Positions 14,701 to 54,862 of a stretch of 64,000 nucleotides of DNA are shown here, piece after piece. Each line of letters begins with the position of its first letter. The first letter of the stretch is position 1. The stretch spans positions 1-64,000 of IMG/VR virus record IMGVR_UViG_3300028800_000003; one strand, written 5' to 3'. The translations under genes and the position numbers were made by a program. Origin of the DNA: a virus. The notes below the pieces were generated by a model. That model was not told the origin of the DNA, did no database searches, and worked only from the letters and a program-made list of their open reading frames with translations.

Positions 14701-15000
14701 GTGATGACGCTACGCCCCGAGCAAATCGCCGTCCGTGATGCTTGTCACGCAGCGTATGCGGCAGATGACGCGTATGAGAAAGCGCTCAAAGCCGCCGGCT
14801 ATAAATCGCGCTGGGATTGGTCTGCACCATTCGCGGTGCGCGACCTCGCGCTAAGCGACAATGACGCGACCGGACTGACACCGCTGCAAGCGGCCTATGT
14901 CGCAAAGGTCCGCGCCGATCGTGCGTCGCATCGAGCATGGGAAAGACTGCGAGAACGACCCGAAAATAACCGCATGGAACACTTGAATAACCGCGGTTAG
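14701..15000 (+). CDS. Hypothetical protein
   Basis: GGAGG RBS. Confidence 0.55.
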   Translation: MMTLRPEQIAVRDACHAAYAADDAYEKALKAAGYKSRWDWSAPFAVRDLALSDNDATGLTPLQAAYVAKVRADRASHRAWERLRERPENNRMEHLNNRG

Positions 15001-28104: not shown

Positions 28105-28583
28105 TTAAACACCTCCTCCTCGTCTTGAATCCCCTTCCTTTCCCCTTCCCTTCCCTTCCCTTCCCCTTTACGAGAAAGGGAACGCGTGGTTGACGCGTCG
28201 GCCACGCGTGCGGCACGCGTAGAAATGCTGTCTTCATGGGGTGAAGGCAGCTTGCTTGGCGATTCGCGATTGTTGATGACCTGATGATCATGCCAGGTCG
28301 GGATGAAGCCGTAATCCTCGCCGTCGAACGCGTACTTGACGACAAAGCCACGCGTGGCCAACGCGTCGAGCACGCGTGAAAAATCGATGTCGTCGTATGG
28401 CAGGCAGTAGGTTTTCAATGTGCGCGGCCGCCAACAGAAACGACCTTCGCGATCCACCACGGTGAACAGCGCGATGAAGGCAAGCCGTAGCGGCAAGCCA
28501 GTTTCTTTCTCGGCGTCAAACAGCTTCTCGTGCTTGAACAGGCCGGGTTTTACGGTACGGATGCGGGGCTCTTGCATCGGCAT
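28101..28583 (-). CDS. Phage replication initiator, short form
   Basis: RIRTVKP.LF.HE...DREGRF.WRP..LK; W..HQ.IN; GKGREG repeats. Confidence 0.75.
   Translation of the reverse strand: MPMQEPRIRTVKPGLFKHEKLFDAEKETGLPLRLAFIALFTVVDREGRFCWRPRTLKTYCLPYDDIDFSRVLDALATRGFVVKYAFDGEDYGFIPTWHDHQVINNRESPSKLPSPHEDSISTRAARVADASTTRSLSRKGEGKGREGERKGIQDEEEVFK
28182..28377. repeat. Iteron-like ACGCGT repeats with 11-bp phasing (putative origin)
   Basis: ACGCGT at 28182, 28193, 28204, 28215 and at 28328, 28350, 28361, 28372. Confidence 0.65.
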
Positions 28584-34029: not shown

Positions 34030-34037
34030 ACTTTATT

Positions 34038-34078
34038 TAACCGCGGTTATTGACGGTTAGCCGAGAAGGGCTCATATA
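34038..34078 (+). promoter_or_regulatory. Promoter with a TAACCGCGGTTA palindrome abutting the -35 box
   Basis: TTGACG-N17-CATATA. Confidence 0.7.
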
Positions 34079-36582: not shown

Positions 36583-36777
36583 ATGTGCCAGGGCAGCCTT
36601 TTTCATAAATGGTCGGACTGGATTTACCCGCCGAGCAACGCGACTGAGGCCATCGACAAATTCGGCATGGCCATCGCGCCTATCGAGTCGAAGCTGTTTG
36701 ATCGGTGGATCGAAAAGGTCCGCATTTGCTGCAAGTGCAGCAACGTTCAGGTTCGATACATCCCGGACGGTCACTGA
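36583..36777 (+). CDS. Hypothetical protein
   Basis: C....H.W...RICCKC pattern. Confidence 0.5.
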   Translation: MCQGSLFHKWSDWIYPPSNATEAIDKFGMAIAPIESKLFDRWIEKVRICCKCSNVQVRYIPDGH

Positions 36778-37469
36778 TGAAGCCACTCGGCCGCAAAAAC
36801 TACGGCTCGATTGCGCATCTACCATGTAGTCGCATGGGGCCGGCAGACCATGCGTGTCACGCCGGTCAAGCACGTATCGCCACCGAGAAGGCGCGCGATC
36901 GACACGACCTGATCATCGTAACCGAGAAGCTGGACGGCTCCAACGTCGGCATCGCAAACGTCGACGGCGTGATCTACGCAATCGGGCGCGCCGGTCACCT
37001 TGCGCAAACGTCGCCGTATGAACAGCATCAACTATTCGCGGACTGGGTAAGGCAAGACGAGCAGCGCTGGCGCGATGCGCTGCCCGCCGGCTGCCGGCTG
37101 GTCGGGGAATGGCTCGCGCAGGCTCACGGCACGCGCTACAGCCTGCCGCGAGGCCCATTCGTGGCATTCGATTTGATGTACGGCGATACCCGCACATCCT
37201 TCTCCAGTCTCCGCGCTCATTGCCAGACATTCGGCATTCCGATGCCGAAGCTGCTCCATCTCGGAGGTCCGCTTTCCGTCGAGGCAGCAATGGCGCTGCA
37301 CGGATGCGGCGACCACGGCTGTCTCGATGAACCGGAAGGCGCGGTCTGGCGCGTCGAGCGCCGCGGCGAATTCGATTTCATGTGCAAGTGGGTGCGCCCC
37401 GATAAGGTCGACGGCAAATTTCTGCCGGAGATTTCCGGTGGCGCGCCAATCTGGAATTGGCGACCATGA
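36777..37469 (+). CDS. RNA ligase family nucleotidyltransferase
   Basis: Motif I TEKLDGSN, GEW, FVAFD, EGAVWR, KWV. Confidence 0.85.
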   Translation: MKPLGRKNYGSIAHLPCSRMGPADHACHAGQARIATEKARDRHDLIIVTEKLDGSNVGIANVDGVIYAIGRAGHLAQTSPYEQHQLFADWVRQDEQRWRDALPAGCRLVGEWLAQAHGTRYSLPRGPFVAFDLMYGDTRTSFSSLRAHCQTFGIPMPKLLHLGGPLSVEAAMALHGCGDHGCLDEPEGAVWRVERRGEFDFMCKWVRPDKVDGKFLPEISGGAPIWNWRP

Positions 37470-39817: not shown

Positions 39818-40357
39818 GTGATTCTGAAACCTGGAACCTTCAACGTCAATGAGTACCGCAAGGCAATTCCTGTGTGGGTGAAGCTGCAAGCGTTGATCAA
39901 TTCAATCATTCAGCGCGGCGAACTGCCGCTGAATGATGGCAAGCCGCTCGATGCCCGCGATCTGCAATTCGATCACTGCCCAGCCCTGGTTGATCGGCCA
40001 TACGATACCGTGGCTGGCGATTTCATTCCACAGCAGAACGACCCCGAATTCATCGTCCCGTTGCGCAAGCGCACGCATCTGCAAAAGACAACAGGCCGCA
40101 AGGAGGATGCCGAGCGGACAGTGACGACGCGCGGCAGCGATGTCGGCGAAGCGGCGCGCACGCGGCACATTCAGGACAGCGAGACCATCCACCAGGCGAA
40201 GATGTTGCACCGCGTGGACCCGGATGCGGCACGGCGTCTGCTCGGCAGCGTGCGGCAGAAGACCCGCCTGCGGCCGAAACGCAAGATCGCCAGCCGCGGC
40301 TTCGGCAATCAACATCGTCCCATGCAATCGAGGAAGCGCAACCGTGGCCGGAGTTAG
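39818..40357 (+). CDS. HNH-like protein
   Basis: QFDHCPAL...NDP.FI.PL...H.QKT; GTGA-coupled start. Confidence 0.7.
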   Translation: MILKPGTFNVNEYRKAIPVWVKLQALINSIIQRGELPLNDGKPLDARDLQFDHCPALVDRPYDTVAGDFIPQQNDPEFIVPLRKRTHLQKTTGRKEDAERTVTTRGSDVGEAARTRHIQDSETIHQAKMLHRVDPDAARRLLGSVRQKTRLRPKRKIASRGFGNQHRPMQSRKRNRGRS

Positions 40358-40580
40358 GAACAATCCATGTGTCGAGGCGATCGTTAAGACGCTGCTCGAT
40401 GCCGGCATAAGGCCCGAGGCGCCAGAGGTCACGAAGGGCTGCCACGTCAGGGTGCGCTGGCAGGCGAACGGCAACAAGCGCCAGTATCACACAGGGGCCT
40501 CGCCATCCGACTGGCGAGCCCCGAGGAAGGCGGCATCAGACGTGCGCCGCATGTTGCGCGAAGACGGCTTAGCTCTATAA
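40344..40580 (+). CDS. HicA-fold-like small protein (SPSDWR motif)
   Basis: KGCHVRVRW...GASPSDWRA......VRR. Confidence 0.6.
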   Translation: MAGVRNNPCVEAIVKTLLDAGIRPEAPEVTKGCHVRVRWQANGNKRQYHTGASPSDWRAPRKAASDVRRMLREDGLAL

Positions 40581-40581
40581 A

Positions 40582-40640
40582 AATAACCGGTTATATCTCT
40601 TGACAACCCGCATGTATAACCGCATCTGAGAACCGCGGCA
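40582..40640 (+). promoter_or_regulatory. Promoter of the Tas-like operon with multiple AACCGC/ACCCGC motifs
   Basis: ATAACCGGTTAT palindrome, then TTGACA (40600)-N17-CATCTG. Confidence 0.6.
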
Positions 40641-40662
40641 ATAAACATCGGAGTCAGCCAAG

Positions 40663-41196
40663 ATGAGCCTCACAGAAAATACCGAGCCACGTCGTCGTCG
40701 CCAAAGCCGCCGACGTAACCCAGAGACGCTTGGGGAGTTGCTGGTTTCGCTTCATCAACAATATCCGCGAGCGACCGAGACCGAACTAAAATCCATGCTC
40801 CGCGAGAATGGCAAGGAACGTCCGCAACTGGTCGACGAAGCCTTGGATTTCTGGTCGTCGCTCAATTACCGCAAGCTGATCGTCGCTCCCAATCCTGCCG
40901 GTCAGACATCGCGACCGCAACCGCGAGAGAACATCGAGGGCAGCGCCCAGGCTGCGCGCGTCACCATCCAAACGATTTTCGATACTTTCATGATCGGCGG
41001 CAAGCCGGTCGGCGAATACACGACGCAAGAAGCCATCGGCGTCGGACGCACAAACATCCGCCATGGCTACATTCTTCTGCGCATGGCGCGCGTCGTCGCC
41101 AACCCCGATCCGAATGCCAAGCTGCGCAACATCGTGAAGCTCAACGAAGCGCAGCGCATCATCAAACAAGCGATCGAGGAATCGAATGTCGCGTAA
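40663..41196 (+). CDS. Hypothetical protein, putative partner of the Tas-like gene
   Basis: GGAG RBS; overlaps the start of the Nop-domain gene by 11 nt. Confidence 0.8.
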   Translation: MSLTENTEPRRRRQSRRRNPETLGELLVSLHQQYPRATETELKSMLRENGKERPQLVDEALDFWSSLNYRKLIVAPNPAGQTSRPQPRENIEGSAQAARVTIQTIFDTFMIGGKPVGEYTTQEAIGVGRTNIRHGYILLRMARVVANPDPNAKLRNIVKLNEAQRIIKQAIEESNVA

Positions 41197-42394
41197 GCCA
41201 ACGAAATTGCGAGCGTGCGGTCACCCTGTGTCTTCCCGAAAGAGGCCAAAATCGTCGTCCCGCGCGCTCGCATCCAAAACCGCCTCCGATGACCATTTCA
41301 GGATTGCCCGAAAGGCCGACAACACCCTGTCTTCGGGGGCGGCCACCATTGCAGATGTCGATGATCATGGTTTTATTGTCGCATGCGACCAATCCCAATG
41401 TATCTCAACATCTGCATCCAATTCCGCAGACGATGATCGGTCAATCCGTGCCAATCATGGCCAGCCACAATTTATCTCGTCTGCGGACCTCAAGAAGCGC
41501 ATTGGCGTCATTCATGCGCATTGGCGCAATGCGGTGTTCGCTCGCAAGCAACGCATCCGCATCGGCAACACACTGAGTGCTTTCCTGCGAACTCAACTCG
41601 GCTGGTCGCTCGATAAGAGCGAGAAAGAACGCGAGAAGATCGCGAAACAAGCCGCAAAAATGATCGCCGATGGCGGTGGCGAATGGGCAGAATTTGTTGT
41701 CTCGACAGAGATTTCCATGGCTCCTTGGCAGGACATCGAGTCTCGCCATATCAAGGCGATGGAGAAAATAGCCATCGAATTTCCGGTCTGGTGCGATTTC
41801 GGCAAGCCGGTTCGAGGATTCGGATTGGCATCCTTTGCCAAGATTGTCGCTATGGCCGGCGATCTGTCGCAGTATCCGACGGTCGGCCACTTGCAGAAAC
41901 GTCTTGGAATATCCGTTGTTGACGGTGTCCGTCAGGGCAACCCAGGGAAAGGCGCGACCGCCGACGATTGGATTCGCCATGGCTACAAGCGAACCAACCG
42001 CGCGGAAATCTGGCAGATCGGGGCATCGTTGATAAAGGCTCAGGTCCGCGCTCAGAAGGACGCTGACGGCAAGAAATGCGGCGACAGTCTCGCCGTCGGC
42101 CGTTATGGCGCGATCTATCTGGGTCGCAAGAAACATGAACTGGCGCGGGGCCTCACCCTAAAGCACGCCGACAATCGCGCCAAGCGATACATGGAGAAGT
42201 GTCTGATTCGTGATCTATGGGCGGCATGGCGTCAAGTCATGTCGCTCGGCGCCTTGGTTGATCAGAATGCCAGTGTCGAACAGACCAGTGTTAATTTATC
42301 ACCCAAGGCGCACCCTATTACAGATTTCTATGATCATGGAGAGCGCATCCGAAAGGATCATGGATTACTGTGCGCGTCATACCCCAACGGCTAG
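41186..42394 (+). CDS. IS110/Nop-domain RNA-binding protein without a RuvC or HNH domain (TasA-like)
   Basis: Coiled coil followed by VRGFGLASFAKIVAMAGDLSQYPTVGHLQKRLG, GY....RAEIWQIGASLIK and HADNRAKRYMEK.LIRDLW; no DEDD N-terminal domain; GAGGA RBS. Confidence 0.8.
   Translation: MSRKPTKLRACGHPVSSRKRPKSSSRALASKTASDDHFRIARKADNTLSSGAATIADVDDHGFIVACDQSQCISTSASNSADDDRSIRANHGQPQFISSADLKKRIGVIHAHWRNAVFARKQRIRIGNTLSAFLRTQLGWSLDKSEKEREKIAKQAAKMIADGGGEWAEFVVSTEISMAPWQDIESRHIKAMEKIAIEFPVWCDFGKPVRGFGLASFAKIVAMAGDLSQYPTVGHLQKRLGISVVDGVRQGNPGKGATADDWIRHGYKRTNRAEIWQIGASLIKAQVRAQKDADGKKCGDSLAVGRYGAIYLGRKKHELARGLTLKHADNRAKRYMEKCLIRDLWAAWRQVMSLGALVDQNASVEQTSVNLSPKAHPITDFYDHGERIRKDHGLLCASYPNG
41208..41487 (+). 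ncRNA. TIGR-like stem-loop guide array, four dual-spacer units, inside the 5' part of the Tas-like ORF
   Basis: Units 41208-41272, 41280-41342, 41350-41416 and 41423-41487, each outer stem/YCR-N9-TK/hairpin/CCR-N9-TV/outer stem. Confidence 0.8.
42249..42381 (+). ncRNA. Two further TIGR-like units, one degenerate, inside the 3' part of the Tas-like ORF
   Basis: 42249-42311 fits the unit pattern exactly; 42329-42381 fits partially. Confidence 0.65.
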
Positions 42395-42397
42395 AGG

Positions 42398-42949
42398 TCA
42401 CGACGGCGGTAGCGCCGGTTCGCACACTCGCGAGAAGATATAGCGAAGCGAACGGACCAACGACCTTTCATCAGAATCTGGAATCGGTACTGTCACCAAA
42501 TCCTGATGACATTCCTGATGACCAAAGATGAAATCACAGACTGTGTCAGGATAGAAGCCTTTGACGACGATCCGCATTGGGCGCACTTGAAAGTCCTGCG
42601 TCAGATGGTCGAAGGCAATCGTTGATATTGGGTTGCCCGGTAATTCTCCGTGATACGGCCGCAGCCGATAGGTGCATGGCGTATTCTCGACGTGCTCAAT
42701 GAGCCAGTCGAATTTCTTCTCTGGGCACGAATGAGCATAGCAGCTTGCCACCCCGGTGACTCTTGCGCCGTCGAGCGGCTTTGCAGAGCTTGATGCAGTA
42801 AATGTGTCGAGACGACTGAGCGGCGCATAACTGCGAATGAAGACATTCGCAATCGCTTCAATTCCCGCATCTTCTGAGGGAATTGCCGGCGGCGACCAGC
42901 CGCCCAAGGTTGCGGTGAGTGAAATTATTGCCCATTGCCAGAAGCGCAT
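42398..42949 (-). CDS. Secreted Cys-containing protein (moron-like)
   Basis: Signal-peptide-like N-terminus; opposite strand to its neighbours; lower GC. Confidence 0.65.
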   Translation of the reverse strand: MRFWQWAIISLTATLGGWSPPAIPSEDAGIEAIANVFIRSYAPLSRLDTFTASSSAKPLDGARVTGVASCYAHSCPEKKFDWLIEHVENTPCTYRLRPYHGELPGNPISTIAFDHLTQDFQVRPMRIVVKGFYPDTVCDFIFGHQECHQDLVTVPIPDSDERSLVRSLRYIFSRVCEPALPPS

Positions 42950-43037
42950 GAGTTTCCTGTCTCATTCCGCCCTACCCAGATCATAGTCAGTCAACGGCAA
43001 TCAGCGCAACCGCCTGATCTGCGCGGTTAAATACCCC

Positions 43038-43066
43038 TTGCAAACCGCACGTGACGCGGTTATATA
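43038..43066 (+). promoter_or_regulatory. Promoter with an AACCGC...GCGGTT inverted motif in its spacer
   Basis: TTGCAA-N17-TATATA. Confidence 0.65.
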
Positions 43067-43074
43067 CGGGTGGC

Positions 43075-43300
43075 AGTTAGTGGGGATCGACGAGGCGGGC
43101 GGCTCATTGGAGGCAGTGGCCGCCCGCCAAATCGGTTCCCGAAACGAAAACGCGCCCCAGATCGCTACGGCGGGAGAGCACTCACCGGCTCTAACTCAAA
43201 GCCCGTCGTGCGGTTTGAGACACCCAAAATTGGGCGCGTTTGGCCACCGGACATAAGTCGCCGCGGTTTTGTGGAACCGTCTCGCTTCCGGTGGCCCCCA
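43075..43300 (+). ncRNA. Highly structured non-coding leader or sRNA
   Basis: Stems GGCGGGCGGC/GCCGCCCGCC, AAACGCGCCC/GGGCGCGTTT and GGCCACCGGA/TCCGGTGGCC. Confidence 0.55.
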
Positions 43301-43326
43301 CCAATTCAAAAGGGGCGTGCCGCGCG

Positions 43327-44319
43327 ATGCTGTTTACGGTTATCGATACCGAAACAACCGGGACCAATCCCGAGAACGATGCCCTGATCGACATCGCCGC
43401 CATCGATGTCGAAAATGGCATTGTCAGCGACAAGCCGCGCATTTCTTTCATCAAGCCGCCGATCCCGATCCCGCCAGAAGCGTCGGCCGTGCATCACATT
43501 GTTGATGCCGATGTGGCGCAGGCGCCGCCAGCACGCGAGGCCGTGCCGCTGGTGCTGATACCGGATCGGCCGGCGATCTACGTCGCGCACAAGGCAGACT
43601 TTGAGTACGGCTTCCTGAAAAGCTACTTGCCGGCCGGCTCCACTTGGCTCTGCACCTGGAGGGCGGCTTTGCGCGTCTACCCGAACGCGCCGAATCACAA
43701 ACTCCAGACGCTCCGTTATTTCCTCAACCTGCCAGTCGATCGCGCCATCGCCGACTATGCGCACCGCGCGATGCCGGATGCCTACGTGGCCGCCTATTTG
43801 TTACTCGACCTGCTGACCAAGGCGTCTGTCGAAGACATGCTCGCCTGGACGCGCGAGCCCCCGCGCCTGCCGTTTTGCCCGCTCAATCCGCACCGCGGCA
43901 AGCCCTGGTCTCAGGTGCCCGTCGATTTCCTGATGTGGATCGTCGGCCTGGAGAAACAAAAAGACCGGGACATGGACCCGGACATCATCTGGAACGCGCG
44001 GCTGGAATTGGACCGCCTCGCCATGGCGCAACGCGCGGCGAAGCAAACCGAACGCGACGCCAAAAACGAACTGATCGAAACGGAACGCGAGGCCTACGCC
44101 AAGCTGTTCAAGCAAATTCTCGCCAATCCAGACACCCAGCCGAAGACGGTTGCGGACCTGGAGAACTGGTGGAAGGGCGAGGCCGAGAGCCGCACCAAGT
44201 GGAACATCATCAAAGGCGACCCGCTCTATAGCGAGCTGGCGAAAGCCTGCGCCGACTACAAGAAAACCATCGTTCAACAACAACCGGCAGCGCAGACCAA
44301 TGAGCAAGTCGCAGCATAG
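43327..44319 (+). CDS. Exodeoxyribonuclease X-like DEDDh exonuclease
   Basis: VIDTETTG, VAHKADFE, HRAMPDAY; C-terminal HRGKPWSQVP.DFL.W. Confidence 0.9.
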   Translation: MLFTVIDTETTGTNPENDALIDIAAIDVENGIVSDKPRISFIKPPIPIPPEASAVHHIVDADVAQAPPAREAVPLVLIPDRPAIYVAHKADFEYGFLKSYLPAGSTWLCTWRAALRVYPNAPNHKLQTLRYFLNLPVDRAIADYAHRAMPDAYVAAYLLLDLLTKASVEDMLAWTREPPRLPFCPLNPHRGKPWSQVPVDFLMWIVGLEKQKDRDMDPDIIWNARLELDRLAMAQRAAKQTERDAKNELIETEREAYAKLFKQILANPDTQPKTVADLENWWKGEAESRTKWNIIKGDPLYSELAKACADYKKTIVQQQPAAQTNEQVAA

Positions 44320-45013: not shown

Positions 45014-46996
45014 ATGACCACCGTTGTTACGAATAACGATTACACTGGCCAGCCCTGGGACGGTTTGTTGTCCGGTACGCAATGGGCTACCGACAATCTC
45101 ACTTTCAGTTTCCCGACCGATGCCGCCGATTACGATTTCGGGTACATCCAAGGGGCAGGCGCTCCATCGGATAATTTCCAGCCGCTTAGTGCAGCCGAGC
45201 AAACCGCGGTGCTCAATGTCCTGAACGACTATGCCGCGGTCAGCAATCTGACGTTTACTCAGATCACCGAAACCACCGACACGCATGCCAACCTGCGCGA
45301 GGCGCAGTCGTCGGATGCCGGCGCCGCAATGACATTCGCGCCAAACTCGCAGTTCAATGATTATCCGTTGAGCGCGGACTCCTGGTACGAGCCGACTGGT
45401 TTCAGCGACTATGGGGCTTTGGTTTCTGATCCTGTGCTCGGCGGCTACGGCTATCTCGCCTTCACACACGAAATCGGCATTGCGCTCGGGCTCAATGACG
45501 ACGTGCAGGGCAATGACCTGCCGGCGTCCATGGATGCGATGCAGAATTCCGTGGAGTCGTATCGCTCCTATATCGGCGGCCCCACCGATCAGGGTTGGAG
45601 CAACGCAACGTGGGGGTATGCCACGTCGCCGATGCAGGATGACATCGCGGCCATCCAGCAGATGTACGGTGCGAATTTCAGCGGCATCGGAACGTCGGTC
45701 ACGTATTCCTGGAATCAAAACACCGGCGAGGAATCGATCAACGGCGTCGGCCAAGGCGTGCCGGGCGGTAATGCGATCTTCTCCACCGTCTGGGATCAAG
45801 GCGCCACCACGACCTACGACCTATCGAACTATTCGACCAACGAGGTTGTCGATCTGCTGCCGGGAGCGTGGAGCACGTTCGATACGGCGCAGCTCGCCAA
45901 TCTCGGCAACGGCAATGTGGCTCCCGGCAACGTCGCCAACGCCCTTGAATATGATGGCAACACCTCGTCCGACGTGACGCATGTCATCGGCGGCTCTGGC
46001 CATAACCTCATCATCGGCAACAATGCCGGCGATACGATCTACGGCGGCTCGAACGGCGGCAACATCATCGTGGCCGGAGCAGGCAGCAACACGATCGACG
46101 GCGGCGCTGGCGGCGACAACACCTTGGTCCTCCCCGGCAGCTTCATCGATTACCAGATATCCGACTCAAACGGCGTTCTCCAAATCGGCTCGAACCAAGT
46201 CACCGACGTGCAGGACATCCAGTTCGGTGCCGAGACGGTCAGCGCCCATGACATCGTCAATGCAGTCAGCGTGCAAGGCGGGACGATGGATGCCGGCTTC
46301 GGCAACTTCTCCGGCGTCGCTGGCGAGAATGGCGACATGCTGCTGCGCAACGGCGCTGGCGTGCTCACAATCTACGACGTGAGCAACAACACCGTGACCG
46401 GCTCATCCAACGTCGGGCAAATCGGCTTCAACATGCAGGTGCTCGGCTACGGAGATTTCTCCGGCCGCTCCGGCGAGACCGATATGCTGATGCAGGATAC
46501 CGGCAGCGGCGCCATGGAGGTCTACGACTTCACCGACAACACCCTCACTGGCTACGCCTCGATGGGGCAGGTCGGCACAGAGTGGAAAGTCCTCGGCTTC
46601 GGTGACTTCTCCAGCAATCCCGGCGAGACCGATATGCTGATGCAGGATAGCAACAACGGTGCCTTGGAATATTACGACATCGCCGGCAACACGATCACTG
46701 CTGCCGGCGGGATGGGACAAGTCGGCCTGGAATGGTCGCTGGTCGGGTTCAGCCCCGTCAACGGCGGCACGACCGACATGCTCATGACCGATAAGTCCAC
46801 CGGCGCCATGGAGATGTATGGCATCGCCAACAACACCATCGTATCGGCGCAACCGTGGTTCGGTCAGGAGGGCGATCAACTGGTACAGGCGATGGCAGCA
46901 TTTGCCGCGCCAAGCGGCCCGGCCTTGTCCAATCCGACCCACGACCCTGTCATCCAGCAACAGCCGGCGCCATTCGCTGTAGGCAAGGCGATCTGA
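45014..46996 (+). CDS. Serralysin-like (M10B) protein with RTX-like and FG-GAP-like repeats; degenerate Zn site
   Basis: LTFSFP, HEIGIALGLND (canonical HEIGHALGLxH), PMQDDIAAIQQMYG, TVWD.G, GGxGxN repeats, GDFS..SGETDML repeats. Confidence 0.85.
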   Translation: MTTVVTNNDYTGQPWDGLLSGTQWATDNLTFSFPTDAADYDFGYIQGAGAPSDNFQPLSAAEQTAVLNVLNDYAAVSNLTFTQITETTDTHANLREAQSSDAGAAMTFAPNSQFNDYPLSADSWYEPTGFSDYGALVSDPVLGGYGYLAFTHEIGIALGLNDDVQGNDLPASMDAMQNSVESYRSYIGGPTDQGWSNATWGYATSPMQDDIAAIQQMYGANFSGIGTSVTYSWNQNTGEESINGVGQGVPGGNAIFSTVWDQGATTTYDLSNYSTNEVVDLLPGAWSTFDTAQLANLGNGNVAPGNVANALEYDGNTSSDVTHVIGGSGHNLIIGNNAGDTIYGGSNGGNIIVAGAGSNTIDGGAGGDNTLVLPGSFIDYQISDSNGVLQIGSNQVTDVQDIQFGAETVSAHDIVNAVSVQGGTMDAGFGNFSGVAGENGDMLLRNGAGVLTIYDVSNNTVTGSSNVGQIGFNMQVLGYGDFSGRSGETDMLMQDTGSGAMEVYDFTDNTLTGYASMGQVGTEWKVLGFGDFSSNPGETDMLMQDSNNGALEYYDIAGNTITAAGGMGQVGLEWSLVGFSPVNGGTTDMLMTDKSTGAMEMYGIANNTIVSAQPWFGQEGDQLVQAMAAFAAPSGPALSNPTHDPVIQQQPAPFAVGKAI

Positions 46997-48626: not shown

Positions 48627-50069
48627 ATGCGACAGCCGAGCGTCTACGAGCAACGCGCCCGCGAACTGTGTGCTGCCGACGGCATCGATCCTGAAAGCCG
48701 CGTGCCGTATCCCGGCAAGCCGAGCCGAACGATGCCGGCATGGGTGCCGTACAAGATCAAGGCAGAGCAGGAAGAACTGGCGAGCATCGCCGCTTCGGCG
48801 CTGCCGCTGCGCGGTCCCGACATGCTACCTCACATCAACCTGCGACCTGAAAATCAGATTGAGACAGACAATCTCAACGCCGTCGCCAAGACCATGATCG
48901 AGATCATGCGTCTGCCGACCATCGTCGACGGCGCGATCATGCCTGACGCCTGTCCGGTCGGGAAGGGCGAGATTCCTGTGGGCGGCGTCGTCGCTACCAA
49001 GGAAGCCATTCACCCTGGATTCCATTCGGCCGACATCTGCTGCTCGATGGCAGTGTCGATCTTCTCTACACCGGCAGATCGCGGTCCTGGCAAGGAAATC
49101 CTCGACGCCGGCATGAAGATCAGCCATTTCGGCGGCGGTGGCCGTCCGCATAGCCACGACATGCAGTGCTCGAATTCTCTGCTCGCCGAGTTCGAGAGCA
49201 ATCGCTTTCTGTCCAACATGATCGAGATGGCGCGCAAGCATTTCGGCACGCAAGGCGACGGCAATCATTTCTTCTATGTCGGCCGCGTTGCCTCGACGGG
49301 CCAGACAGCACTGGTGACACATCACGGCTCCCGCGCTCCTGGCGCGACGCTCTACAAGCTGGGCATGGACGTTGCAGAGGATTGGCGGCGCAAGTTGTGC
49401 CCGGAGGCGCCGAAGCAAGCCGCCTGGATTCCCAGTGAGACACGCGACGGCGAGGAATACTGGAAGGCGCTCCAGATCATCCGCACCTGGACGAAGAAGA
49501 ACCATTTCGCGATCCACGACGCGGTCTCCAAGCATCTCGGCTTGAGAGTCGTTGATCGCTTCTGGAACGAGCACAACTTCGTGTTCCGGAAGCCGGATGG
49601 TCTTTTCTACCACGCCAAGGGCGCGACTCCGGCCTTTCCGTATTGGGCCGCTGACGTATCAGACCACCTGACGCTGATCCCGCTCAACATGGCACAGCCG
49701 ATTCTGATCGCCAGTGGACTCAACGCGCCGCACGCGCTCGGCTTCGCCCCGCACGGCGCCGGCCGCAATATGAGTCGCACGGCGTATGAGCGGTCACTTG
49801 GCGAGATGGCGGTGAACGCCGACCATTTCGTCAAGTCACAGACGCCTGGATTGGACGTGCGCTTCTTCTGCGGCGTCCCTGACCTGTCGGAGTTGCCCGG
49901 CGCCTACAAGAACGCCGACGCGGTGCGTGCGCAGATTGATGAATTCGGTCTCGCCGAGATCGTCGATACCATCGAGCCGATCGGAACCATCATGGCAGGG
50001 GATTGGCAGGCCGACATGCCGTGGCGGAAGAAACGCCAGAAAAAGGTCGCGGAGGCCACCGCACAGTGA
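48627..50069 (+). CDS. rtcB: RtcB RNA ligase
   Basis: MPDAC, PVGGV, ADICCS, GTQGDGNHF, HHGSR, HNF, HAKGAT, PHGAGR, E.PGAYK. Confidence 0.92.
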   Translation: MRQPSVYEQRARELCAADGIDPESRVPYPGKPSRTMPAWVPYKIKAEQEELASIAASALPLRGPDMLPHINLRPENQIETDNLNAVAKTMIEIMRLPTIVDGAIMPDACPVGKGEIPVGGVVATKEAIHPGFHSADICCSMAVSIFSTPADRGPGKEILDAGMKISHFGGGGRPHSHDMQCSNSLLAEFESNRFLSNMIEMARKHFGTQGDGNHFFYVGRVASTGQTALVTHHGSRAPGATLYKLGMDVAEDWRRKLCPEAPKQAAWIPSETRDGEEYWKALQIIRTWTKKNHFAIHDAVSKHLGLRVVDRFWNEHNFVFRKPDGLFYHAKGATPAFPYWAADVSDHLTLIPLNMAQPILIASGLNAPHALGFAPHGAGRNMSRTAYERSLGEMAVNADHFVKSQTPGLDVRFFCGVPDLSELPGAYKNADAVRAQIDEFGLAEIVDTIEPIGTIMAGDWQADMPWRKKRQKKVAEATAQ

Positions 50070-53607: not shown

Positions 53608-53999
53608 GTGAATTGTTTTCATTGGAGGAAGCCGCGCGGCGACTCTGCAAGACTAAGACATGGCTGGCGGAATGGCTACGCCACCATCCTGTGGATGACA
53701 ACGGTGATCCATTCTATACTCCGGTTGGTCGCACCAAAATCCTCGACGATCGCGATGTGAATCGCATCAGAGACAAGTTGCGTGAGGAAGAACGATGCCG
53801 CTTAAACTCCAGCCCCCGCGTCAAGGCACGACGGCGAGCTACTATGTCCGCGGATCATACCTCGGCGTCTTTGTGGATCGAAGCACGAAGACTGCTGACC
53901 GAAGGCTCGCCGAGAAAATCCGCAAGCAATGGGAACGCGAGATCGAGGATGGCATCTTCGCCCAGCCCGGCGAAGCAACATTCCTCTCGGCAGCGGTAA
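53604..53999 (+). CDS. Excisionase-like HTH protein
   Basis: FSLEEAARRL.K...WL...GRTKI; overlaps the integrase start. Confidence 0.65.
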   Translation: MSELFSLEEAARRLCKTKTWLAEWLRHHPVDDNGDPFYTPVGRTKILDDRDVNRIRDKLREEERCRLNSSPRVKARRRATMSADHTSASLWIEARRLLTEGSPRKSASNGNARSRMASSPSPAKQHSSRQR

Positions 54000-54862
54000 G
54001 CTACATGGCGCATGGCGGCGAGCGCCGGCCAATCCAGAAGCTGCTCGACCATTTCAAGGAGAAGCCTCTCCGGCAGATCGACCAGAAGGCAATCGATGAT
54101 GCCGCCATCGCCTTGTTCCCTGACGCCGCGCCAGCGACGCGCAACCGCGAGGTCTACACGCCAGTCAGTGCCGTTTTGAAGCACGCCGGCATCACCACGC
54201 CACTGCGGCGCCCAAAGGGCTCGCGCGGCCGCGTGATCCGCAAATGGCTGTGGCCCGAGGAGGCTTGGCGCGTAATCGATGCCGCCTATCGGATCGAGCC
54301 GGAGATAGGCTTGCTCTGCGTCATGCTGCTATTCGACGGTCTGCGCATCACCGAGCAACTAGCGATGCGATGCAATGACGTGCGGCTCGATGAAGGCTTC
54401 GCCTTCGTGCCGGACTCCAAGAACGGCGAGCCGCAGCCCATCGAATTAACCGCCTATGCGATCGAGAAGCTACGTGAGCATCCGCGCGGCCTTGACCGCG
54501 GCAGCGAACGCCTATTCCGGTTCCACAAGGGCGGCGGTCTCGATTTCAAGTTGATCCAGGCCTGCTGCCTGGCATCCGGCGTCGAGGTGCCGAAGCGCGT
54601 TAAACGCGGCTCCAAGTGGCCAGAACTGCCTGCCTATGAGTTTGAATGGGTAAGCTGGCATTCCTTCCGCCGAACCTACGCGACGTGGATGCGGCGCTAC
54701 GGTGGGCTCGACGACAAGGACTTGCGCGACACCGGCCGATGGAAGACGGTGGAGTCCGCATCGCGTTATGCGCAAACGGTTACGAGTGAGGCTGCCCGCA
54801 AGGTTCACCTGCTACCCGTGCCCGGTCGTGTGCTGCCGATGGCAAAAGATGACGTTGTGTGA
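53795..54862 (+). CDS. int: Tyrosine integrase
   Basis: GLRITE, SKNGE, HSFRRTYATW, GRW......RY; adjacent att core. Confidence 0.92.
   Translation: MPLKLQPPRQGTTASYYVRGSYLGVFVDRSTKTADRRLAEKIRKQWEREIEDGIFAQPGEATFLSAAVSYMAHGGERRPIQKLLDHFKEKPLRQIDQKAIDDAAIALFPDAAPATRNREVYTPVSAVLKHAGITTPLRRPKGSRGRVIRKWLWPEEAWRVIDAAYRIEPEIGLLCVMLLFDGLRITEQLAMRCNDVRLDEGFAFVPDSKNGEPQPIELTAYAIEKLREHPRGLDRGSERLFRFHKGGGLDFKLIQACCLASGVEVPKRVKRGSKWPELPAYEFEWVSWHSFRRTYATWMRRYGGLDDKDLRDTGRWKTVESASRYAQTVTSEAARKVHLLPVPGRVLPMAKDDVV

Follow-up and report, generated by a model that had tools for sequence, protein, structure and literature searches.

A probable stem-loop TIGR-TasA system with guide-RNA units inside the tasA reading frame of a rhizosphere phage

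The DNA analysed here comprises positions 1 to 64,000 of the IMG/VR virus record IMGVR_UViG_3300028800_000003, and this whole stretch of 64,000 nucleotides (nt) is referred to as the window. It contains a gene, here called tasA, whose open reading frame (ORF) carries at both ends hairpin units with two 9-nt spacers each. We consider it very probable that this locus is a stem-loop TIGR-TasA system of a temperate-looking phage of about 120 kb from the rhizosphere. A TIGR-Tas-like system had already been proposed from the letters alone (hereafter the sequence-only reading). Protein homology and unit layout agree on this identification, and every part of it that could be checked passed. The carrier is a phage, as had also been proposed: the source record is 119,739 bp long, has direct terminal repeats, is rated 100% complete and encodes a large and a small terminase, a primase, a helicase, a DNA polymerase exonuclease, RtcB, an integrase and a tail fibre. 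The window is the first 64 kb of this record.

Sequence comparison and structural modelling indicate that TasA is a nuclease-free Tas-family protein with a Nop domain. A search of 5.8 billion proteins returned 27 relatives besides the query. Their alignment is conserved from about amino acid (aa) 100 to about aa 352, the N-termini cannot be aligned, and the core of TasA keeps the family-invariant residues. When the 27-homologue profile was searched against the PDB, the only match below E = 1 was the cryo-electron microscopy (cryo-EM) structure of TIGR-TasR (9mty_A, E = 3.9e-17). This match covers profile positions 83-289 and chain residues 113-295, which excludes the RuvC part, and the next matches have E > 1. 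In the AlphaFold2 (AF2) model, the predicted local distance difference test (pLDDT) is mostly >90 for aa 95 to about 360 and falls below 50 at aa 1-4, 7-86, 88-90, 371-398 and 400-402, in stretches encoded by the guide units. The two long helices of the model span aa 99-137 and aa 165-196. A Foldseek search against the PDB gave TasR or TasH structures at all of ranks 1-10 (E 1.1e-6 to 5.6e-4), the best being 9mty TasR with E 1.1e-6 and a template modelling (TM) score of 0.55 by target; the IS110-family recombinases ISCro4 and IS621, followed by Prp31, came below rank 10. The coiled coil and Nop/IS110-type fold of the sequence-only reading were thus recovered by both profile and structure searches. 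Its statement that the protein has neither a RuvC nor an HNH domain, the feature by which TasA is told from TasR and TasH, also agrees with our results, since Pfam gave no match of any kind, nuclease domains included, at E up to 1, the model leaves aa 1-90 disordered, and the match to 9MTY begins past its RuvC domain. The TasA family is large: when 1.84 billion representatives were searched with a profile, 4,425 relatives had E up to 0.001 and 1,807 had E up to 1e-30.

The TasA core was also modelled in two copies. The model scored 0.54, the best of three controls 0.01, and the interface lay on the two long helices. The mark set for this score is reached by 20 of 30 proteins solved as one-chain pairs and by one of 23 with single-chain structures. 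The two-copy runs had at least 73% of the contacts in common, with a partner pLDDT of at least 84, in a model that contains no RNA. Because Tas dimers have already been solved, the two-copy model of TasA speaks for likeness to them and not for binding.

The guide-RNA units share one layout, which reads from 5′ to 3′ as closing stem, box C, 9-nt spacer A, box D, inner hairpin, box C, 9-nt spacer B, box D and closing stem (Table 1). The closing stems have 9-13 pairs, to which U2-U5 add two or three conserved pairs (GA/UC), and the inner hairpins are 9-11 nt long. Box C is UCA, CCA, CCG or UCG across the five units, and box D is UG or UA in U2-U5. Stem-loop TIGR-Tas units are characterised by a pair of spacers of 8-12 nt, CCA-like box C, UG-like box D, and palindromic stems whose sequence is kept only near the boxes. 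The four tandem units U1-U4 of the sequence-only reading lie where it had placed them and parse as it had written them, with starts 72, 70 and 73 nt apart. Its description of two 9-nt segments framed by YCR and T(G/A) motifs fits U2-U5 and fails at the box D positions of U1. The fifth unit is located at the 3′ end of the tasA ORF, directly past the conserved core.

Table 1. Features of the tasA locus and related elements in the window.
Feature	Position	Strand	Description
Guide unit U1 (deviant)	41208..41272	+	13-bp stem; UCA; spacer A 41224-41232; UU; CCA; spacer B 41249-41257; UC
Guide unit U2	41280..41342	+	CCA; spacer A 41296-41304; UG; inner hairpin with GAAA loop; CCG; spacer B 41319-41327; UG
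Guide unit U3	41350..41416	+	UCA; spacer A 41368-41376; UG; CCA; spacer B 41392-41400; UA
Guide unit U4	41423..41487	+	UCG; spacer A 41440-41448; UG; CCA; spacer B 41464-41472; UA
Guide unit U5	42249..42311	+	UCA; spacer A 42265-42273; UG; CCA; spacer B 42288-42296; UA; absent from the unit list of the sequence-only reading
Possible degenerate sixth unit	~42307..42390	+	two UCA boxes and GAAA inner hairpin; no UG boxes, no proper closing stem
Folded Tas core	41468..42283	+	two long coiled-coil helices, then Nop-type C-terminal domain; no nuclease predicted
tasA ORF	41186..42394	+	402 aa; both ends encoded by guide-RNA units; confident fold only for aa 95-366
Upstream co-oriented ORF	40663..41196	+	177 aa; stop overlaps tasA start
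GCGGTTATA-like motif, 2 copies upstream of the putative operon	40587..40623	not assigned	motif scan
Tyrosine-integrase-like gene	53795-54862	+	phrog_1, 2.5e-24

All five units fold as closed hairpins. Their minimum free energies are -29.1, -26.4, -23.0, -26.4 and -26.3 kcal/mol for U1 to U5, and the corresponding z-scores are -4.39, -3.19, -3.50, -4.47 and -4.10 (200 shuffles for U1-U4). A covariance model, R1, was built from U2-U5 and gave these training units 57.3, 64.1, 67.7 and 61.9 bits, respectively. U1 received only 14.2 bits (E 0.17 over the window), and two unrelated sites of the window received 15.8 and 15.5 bits. This unit may be impaired and is possibly non-functional, judging from the UU and UC at its box D positions. 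The candidate sixth unit folds no better than shuffles (z -0.83) and is not among the 50 R1 matches listed; we treat it as possibly degenerate or decayed.

Among the matches listed for R1 over the window there were no units beyond U1-U5. Outside tas, a scan of the complete phage genome with the unit pattern plus a duplex found scattered single matches only, six on the + strand and three on the - strand, about the background rate in the flanks of relatives. Rfam had no match in 40000-43500 at E up to 1. A looser pattern (a stem of at least 7 pairs and YCR-N9-TN twice) matched the genome 117 times and five Markov controls 38-72 times. This loose pattern is non-discriminating by itself, and its excess over chance consists of the tandem cluster with long stems.

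The closing stems vary in a manner that preserves pairing. In a five-unit alignment that the model fitted to the structure, so that its figures lean towards structure, ten of the 14 stem pairs change on both sides and pairing holds in 87.1% of cells. Sliding the 3′ partner by 1-3 columns lowers this share to 38-48%, and none of 500 shuffles reaches the observed values. Pairwise identity between units is low in the spacers (50/180, 0.28) and the distal stems (55/170, 0.32) and high in the boxes and proximal stem (137/186, 0.74). Furthermore, each box C of U2-U5 opens with a base that can pair with the final base of the box D facing it, as C-G in five cases and as U-A in three. The main texts of Faure et al. 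(2025, Science, PMC12045711) and of the September preprint of Xu (2026, 10.64898/2026.09.09.750476) describe this box C/D pair from solved Tas complexes. The earlier claim that the outer stems differ in sequence and still pair is thus upheld by the covariation, whereas the G-U wobbles invoked with it are weak as an argument for the strand: on the + strand U1 and U2 have one G-U pair each, a C-A mismatch of U3 becomes G-U on the - strand, and the two strands differ little in how well they fold. We assign the units to the + strand because of the box motifs and the strand bias across the family.

This bias was seen in viral relatives. IMG/VR contained 105 of them, of which 80 loci were kept and scanned with a family pattern of box C, 9 nt, UG or UA, a loop of 4-14 nt, box C, 9 nt and UG or UA, with a flanking duplex of -15 kcal/mol or better. 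In these 80 loci, a set that includes near-identical ones, 158 units near the gene were on its strand and 12 on the opposite strand, and elsewhere the numbers were 17 and 26. The density was 0.80 units per kb near the gene on its strand and 0.06, 0.06 and 0.09 in the other classes. At least one unit was present in 53 of the 80 loci, and at least two in 38. Among 157 distinct units, box C was CCA in 244 of 314 cases and box D was UG in 305 of 314; because the pattern demands the boxes, these counts tell which variant is used and not how often a box is missing. Every spacer A and every spacer B of the 157 units is unique, with near-even base use at each spacer position. As for location, the 159 near-gene units comprise 68 inside the maximal tas ORF, 63 upstream of it and 28 downstream. 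In many relatives the units, 4-6 in number, form a regular array with a period of 63-78 nt (for example L003 2113-2426, L048 1987-2306 and L005 1767-1999). The inner loop has 4 nt in 86 of the 157 units and 6-14 nt in the other 71.

The units are also in phase with the codons of tasA. Box C starts at 41221, 41293, 41365 and 41437 in U1-U4, an exact period of 72 nt or 24 codons. In the 5′ extension, frames 0 and 1 are free of stops, and the stops in frame +2, the upstream ORF's own stop aside, are the conserved UGA preceding box C of U2-U4. The UGA of U5 is also in frame +2, which makes it the same frame in all four units having UGA. Since 72 nt correspond to whole codons, the conserved UGA is kept out of frame. 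No in-frame ATG, GTG or TTG occurs after 41228 and before the core, and ribosomes must therefore read through at least U2-U4 to make the core. The G+C content by codon position is flat in the 5′ extension (0.52/0.56/0.54) and uneven in the core (0.61/0.44/0.65), suggesting that the 5′ extension was not shaped by protein coding. Among the relatives, 31 of 50 distinct spacings between neighbouring units are multiples of three (binomial p = 3e-5 against one third, a value that treats the non-independent pairs within one array as independent), and nine of 21 loci have only such spacings. The period of relatives is often a multiple of three even for units upstream of the first assignable start codon. 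As far as could be seen, Faure 2025 and the preprints of Xu (2026) and Guan (2026, 10.64898/2026.08.11.744272) do not describe this constraint on codon phase.

One transcript might serve both as mRNA of TasA and as precursor of the guides. The two uses would then compete, because excision of the 5′ guides would remove the start codon and TasA sitting on the hairpins would block ribosomes, and feedback would set the ratio of protein to guide. We hold this idea only tentatively and think it somewhat doubtful. In the main text of Xu 2026, coupling between guides and tas translation is likewise raised as a possibility only.

The way in which such a system would work can be drawn from relatives. 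In the main texts of Faure 2025, Xu 2026 and Guan 2026, a Tas dimer holds one tigRNA, the spacers A and B of which pair with opposite DNA strands over 18 bp, and TasA binds and reversibly represses transcription without cutting. By analogy, unit-length tigRNAs would be released from a transcript of the operon, or from an internal transcript, by cuts in the short, G-free linkers. These linkers have 6-7 nt (UCCAAAA, CCACCAU and UCCAAU) and are likely the cutting sites. A TasA dimer would grip one tigRNA at its two box C/D junctions. Spacer A would pair with one DNA strand, spacer B with the opposite strand of the adjacent 9 bp, and the resulting 18-bp site would remain uncut. The bound complex would block transcription or replication at this site. 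TasA may accordingly act here as a programmable DNA-binding protein that does not cut, as the sequence-only reading had supposed.

We searched for sites matching the guides inside and outside the phage. In the complete phage genome, four spacer arrangements with gaps of 0-2 nt and up to 3 mismatches gave five matches, all with exactly 3 mismatches and two of them inside the array itself. With at most one mismatch per half, any spacing of 9-40 nt and any orientation, there was no match, and 2.0 were expected from mispaired spacers. Self-regulation through near-perfect sites is thus unlikely. The external search used a single order, with spacer A first and then spacer B as its reverse complement, and it covered U4 in host genomes and U2-U5 in IMG/VR. 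This order was deduced from the main text of Faure 2025, which gives an 8-nt 3′ overhang and a C-5 rule. In 401 Hyphomicrobiales genomes the U4 site had no exact match and four one-mismatch matches in three genomes; the reversed control had one, so this is chance level. Exact scans of IMG/VR yielded one match for U2, four for U3 and none for U4 and U5. These five matches were judged to be chance because their contigs have 32-46% G+C and the phage 58.8%, and two of them are the same sequence. As the complete phage genome has no site, the guides are most likely aimed outward, at the host or at rival mobile elements.

Several observations weigh against a functional TIGR-TasA system. A natural target above chance was found neither in the phage genome nor in the 401 Hyphomicrobiales genomes nor in IMG/VR. 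U1 has UU and UC, neither UG nor UA, at its box D positions. The CUU processing motif of Xu 2026 is not evident in the linkers; CUU is confined to positions adjoining box D in U1 and U2, and this motif may be specific to other clades. No sigma-70 consensus site was found in 40300-43100, and no sigma-70-type promoter or terminator brackets the array. On the protein side, the single TasA sequence matched the PDB only weakly (E 0.045), Pfam recognised nothing in it, and one of three homodimer runs scored 0.01. The unit counts of relatives, finally, draw on near-identical loci and on a pattern that presupposes the boxes.

Other explanations of the locus were considered. A genuine TIGR-TasA could have its main role elsewhere, either in the phage life cycle, where it would help the integrase by bending DNA or take part in partition, or in gene control, where the hairpins would be operators on the mRNA that bind TasA. 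The phage does encode an integrase, and the main text of Faure 2025 raises both DNA bending that aids integrases and links to ParB. However, the lack of any spacer-pair site in the complete phage genome leaves a role at its own attP or promoters unsupported, and no ParB-like gene adjoins tasA. As to operators, the hairpins fill the first 300 nt of the coding sequence and bound protein would hinder ribosomes there, but fully variable spacers are hard to explain by this function alone. We therefore regard such a main role as unlikely. It is less probable still that the array is decaying or silent, in which case the hairpins would be leftovers that encode a disordered tail and the protein would work without them or not at all. 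This would account for U1, which lacks both UG boxes, and for the degenerate look of the sixth unit; it would not account for U2-U5, in which no defining element is lost and the compensatory box C/D pair is retained as well, for stems that covary, or for an intact protein core with the family-invariant residues. Moreover, contigs of four rhizosphere runs have zero differences in 40600-42600 wherever they cover it (30, 25, 18 and 9 of 30 bins in runs X2, X4, X5 and X6), a partial coverage that makes no test of spacer turnover.

Hardly credible, in our view, is a remnant IS110-type element with hairpins like bridge RNAs, or a methylation guide like a box C/D small RNA. An IS110-family recombinase has an N-terminal DEDD RuvC-like domain and a single bridge RNA. 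In a box C/D small ribonucleoprotein, whose partner is fibrillarin, RUGAUGA as box C and CUGA as box D form a kink-turn (K-turn). The fold of TasA is indeed common to IS110 recombinases and Nop5/Prp31, the protein matches a PHROGs family labelled 'transposase' (phrog_4285, 1.6e-13, aa 181-365), and the GAUGA ahead of box C, seen in U2-U4 on the 5′ side, is reminiscent of a canonical box C. Nevertheless, the 3′ side of these units has neither a CUGA box D nor the tandem G-A partner of a K-turn, and the whole phage lacks fibrillarin. It also lacks a DEDD/RuvC transposase domain (DEDD_Tnp_IS110, PF01548), the N-terminus of TasA is modelled as disordered, the five hairpins form an array and not a single two-loop bridge RNA, and Tas structures lead by four orders of magnitude in Foldseek E-value. 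A stem-loop TIGR-TasA system thus remains the explanation that we prefer.

Systems of this kind have been published. According to the main text of Faure 2025, stem-loop arrays with boxes CCA and UG occur together with TasA. Xu 2026 reports 2,559 stem-loop arrays, which lie in the 5′ end, the 3′ end or the interior of tas with the frame intact and map to disordered segments, and the same main text presents experiments showing TasA to be an RNA-guided repressor of transcription that does not cut. Guan 2026 gives a cryo-EM structure of a stem-loop TasA complex that leaves the loop at the N-terminus unresolved. The locus is therefore not a new kind of system, and the novelty implied by the sequence-only reading was too generous, given TasA stem-loop arrays in 2025 and arrays inside the ORF and repression in 2026. 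As far as could be seen in these three sources, neither the U-A variant of the box C/D pair nor a complete phage genome lacking self-targets has been described.

The present locus can be compared with individual published systems. By description, and not by direct protein comparison, it resembles PlTasA from a Peromyscus leucopus gut contig (main texts of Faure 2025 and Guan 2026), which is nuclease-free, has a long unstructured N-terminal region and forms a dimer with one tigRNA, and whose tandem hairpins have two spacers each framed by boxes C and D, variable palindromic stems and short linkers. In contrast to the 13 units of PlTasA, there are five here, all within the ORF, at both of its ends and with an exact 24-codon period; three units have a U-A box C/D pair where others have C-G, and the carrier is a rhizosphere phage of 59% G+C. 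The TasA of Bifidobacterium longum (BlTasA; main text of Xu 2026) likewise has guides embedded in the tas coding sequence, with the frame kept and in disordered segments, but its embedded unit maps to an internal wedge loop, whereas the units here fill the N- and C-terminal extensions. The loci of Xu 2026 also differ in the CUU motif discussed above. TaTasR (PDB 9MTY), from a dual-repeat TIGR system, is the closest by profile and fold and shares the coiled coil, the Nop domain, CCA/UG boxes and 9-nt spacers. Unlike TasA it has an active N-terminal RuvC domain, and its 36-nt tigRNAs come from conserved edge and loop repeats, whereas each hairpin unit of 63-67 nt here has its own stem. IS110/IS621 elements and box C/D small nucleolar ribonucleoproteins share the Nop-type RNA-binding fold and the logic of tandem guides (Foldseek; main text of Faure 2025). 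They differ in the DEDD recombinase domain, fibrillarin and K-turn box C/D, all missing here, and in that the guides of the phage are arrayed.

The start codon of tasA overlaps the stop codon of the upstream ORF, and a Shine-Dalgarno-like GAGGA is situated 5 nt upstream of the ATG. The 177-aa upstream ORF is possibly an operon partner of tasA. It had no Pfam family above cut-off and no PHROG, and Atlas was uninformative. In four of 93 related loci (L011, L019, L026 and L086), its C-terminal 70-80 aa are found again immediately ahead of tas. Upstream of these two ORFs are two copies of a GCGGTTATA-like motif (Table 1). Two further copies lie at 43023-43064, and others at 14965-14994, 32186, 33506, 34036-34051 and 55157. 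With up to one mismatch, the motif occurs 23 times in the window against 5.53 expected, and none of 100 shuffles reaches 23. Some copies are paired or palindromic (ATAACCGGTTAT at 40583), and several are apparently situated between larger ORFs. The motif may be a phage promoter or an operator or repressor-binding signal.

The phage was probably hosted by a rhizosphere alphaproteobacterium, to judge from its sequence relatives, and probably by a member of the Hyphomicrobiales. Eight public runs contain DNA of the phage; all are labelled rhizosphere metagenome and none is an RNA run. The terminase has less than 30% identity to any deposited phage, and the top-ranked ones are phages of Alphaproteobacteria. 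The closest cellular homologues of TasA are from Hyphomicrobiales, namely a Hyphomicrobium metagenome-assembled genome (46%), Rhodoblastus (42%) and Mesorhizobium (41%), followed by Zhengella (40%), Aminobacter (36%) and Bauldia (36%). Rhizobium phage RHph_X2_25 is the sole cultured phage with a TasA homologue (31.7%, annotated as hypothetical protein). The integrase-like gene suggests a temperate lifestyle. No tRNA genes were found within the 64-kb window.

Two genes of the window may be concerned with RNA ligation. An RtcB-type RNA ligase is encoded at 48627-50069 on the + strand (phrog_1075, 5.7e-88), and a second RNA-ligase-like protein at 36705-37469, also on the + strand (phrog_548, 4.3e-11). 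The presence of RNA-repair genes and a guide-RNA system in one genome may or may not reflect a connection. In addition, a 660-aa ORF at 45014-46996 (+ strand), without a PHROG match, contains, in its C-terminal half, several copies of a repeat some 60 aa long with the pattern ...GDFSG..GETDMLMQD..G...YD.... A purine-rich tract of about 45 nt and GGGAA type, as read on the - strand, is located at 28115-28178, in the interval that separates the primase ORF from the next one.

Systems of the TasA type are programmable DNA binders of very small size. The general picture of TIGR-Tas systems is unchanged by this locus. Since the genome is complete and terminally redundant, it allows the clean statement that none of the five guide pairs matches the phage, unlike most TIGR loci from metagenomes. 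As a possible tool, TasA has a folded core of only about 270 aa. The 24-codon period, together with the out-of-frame UGA, offers a simple handle on whether guide maturation and Tas translation are coupled.

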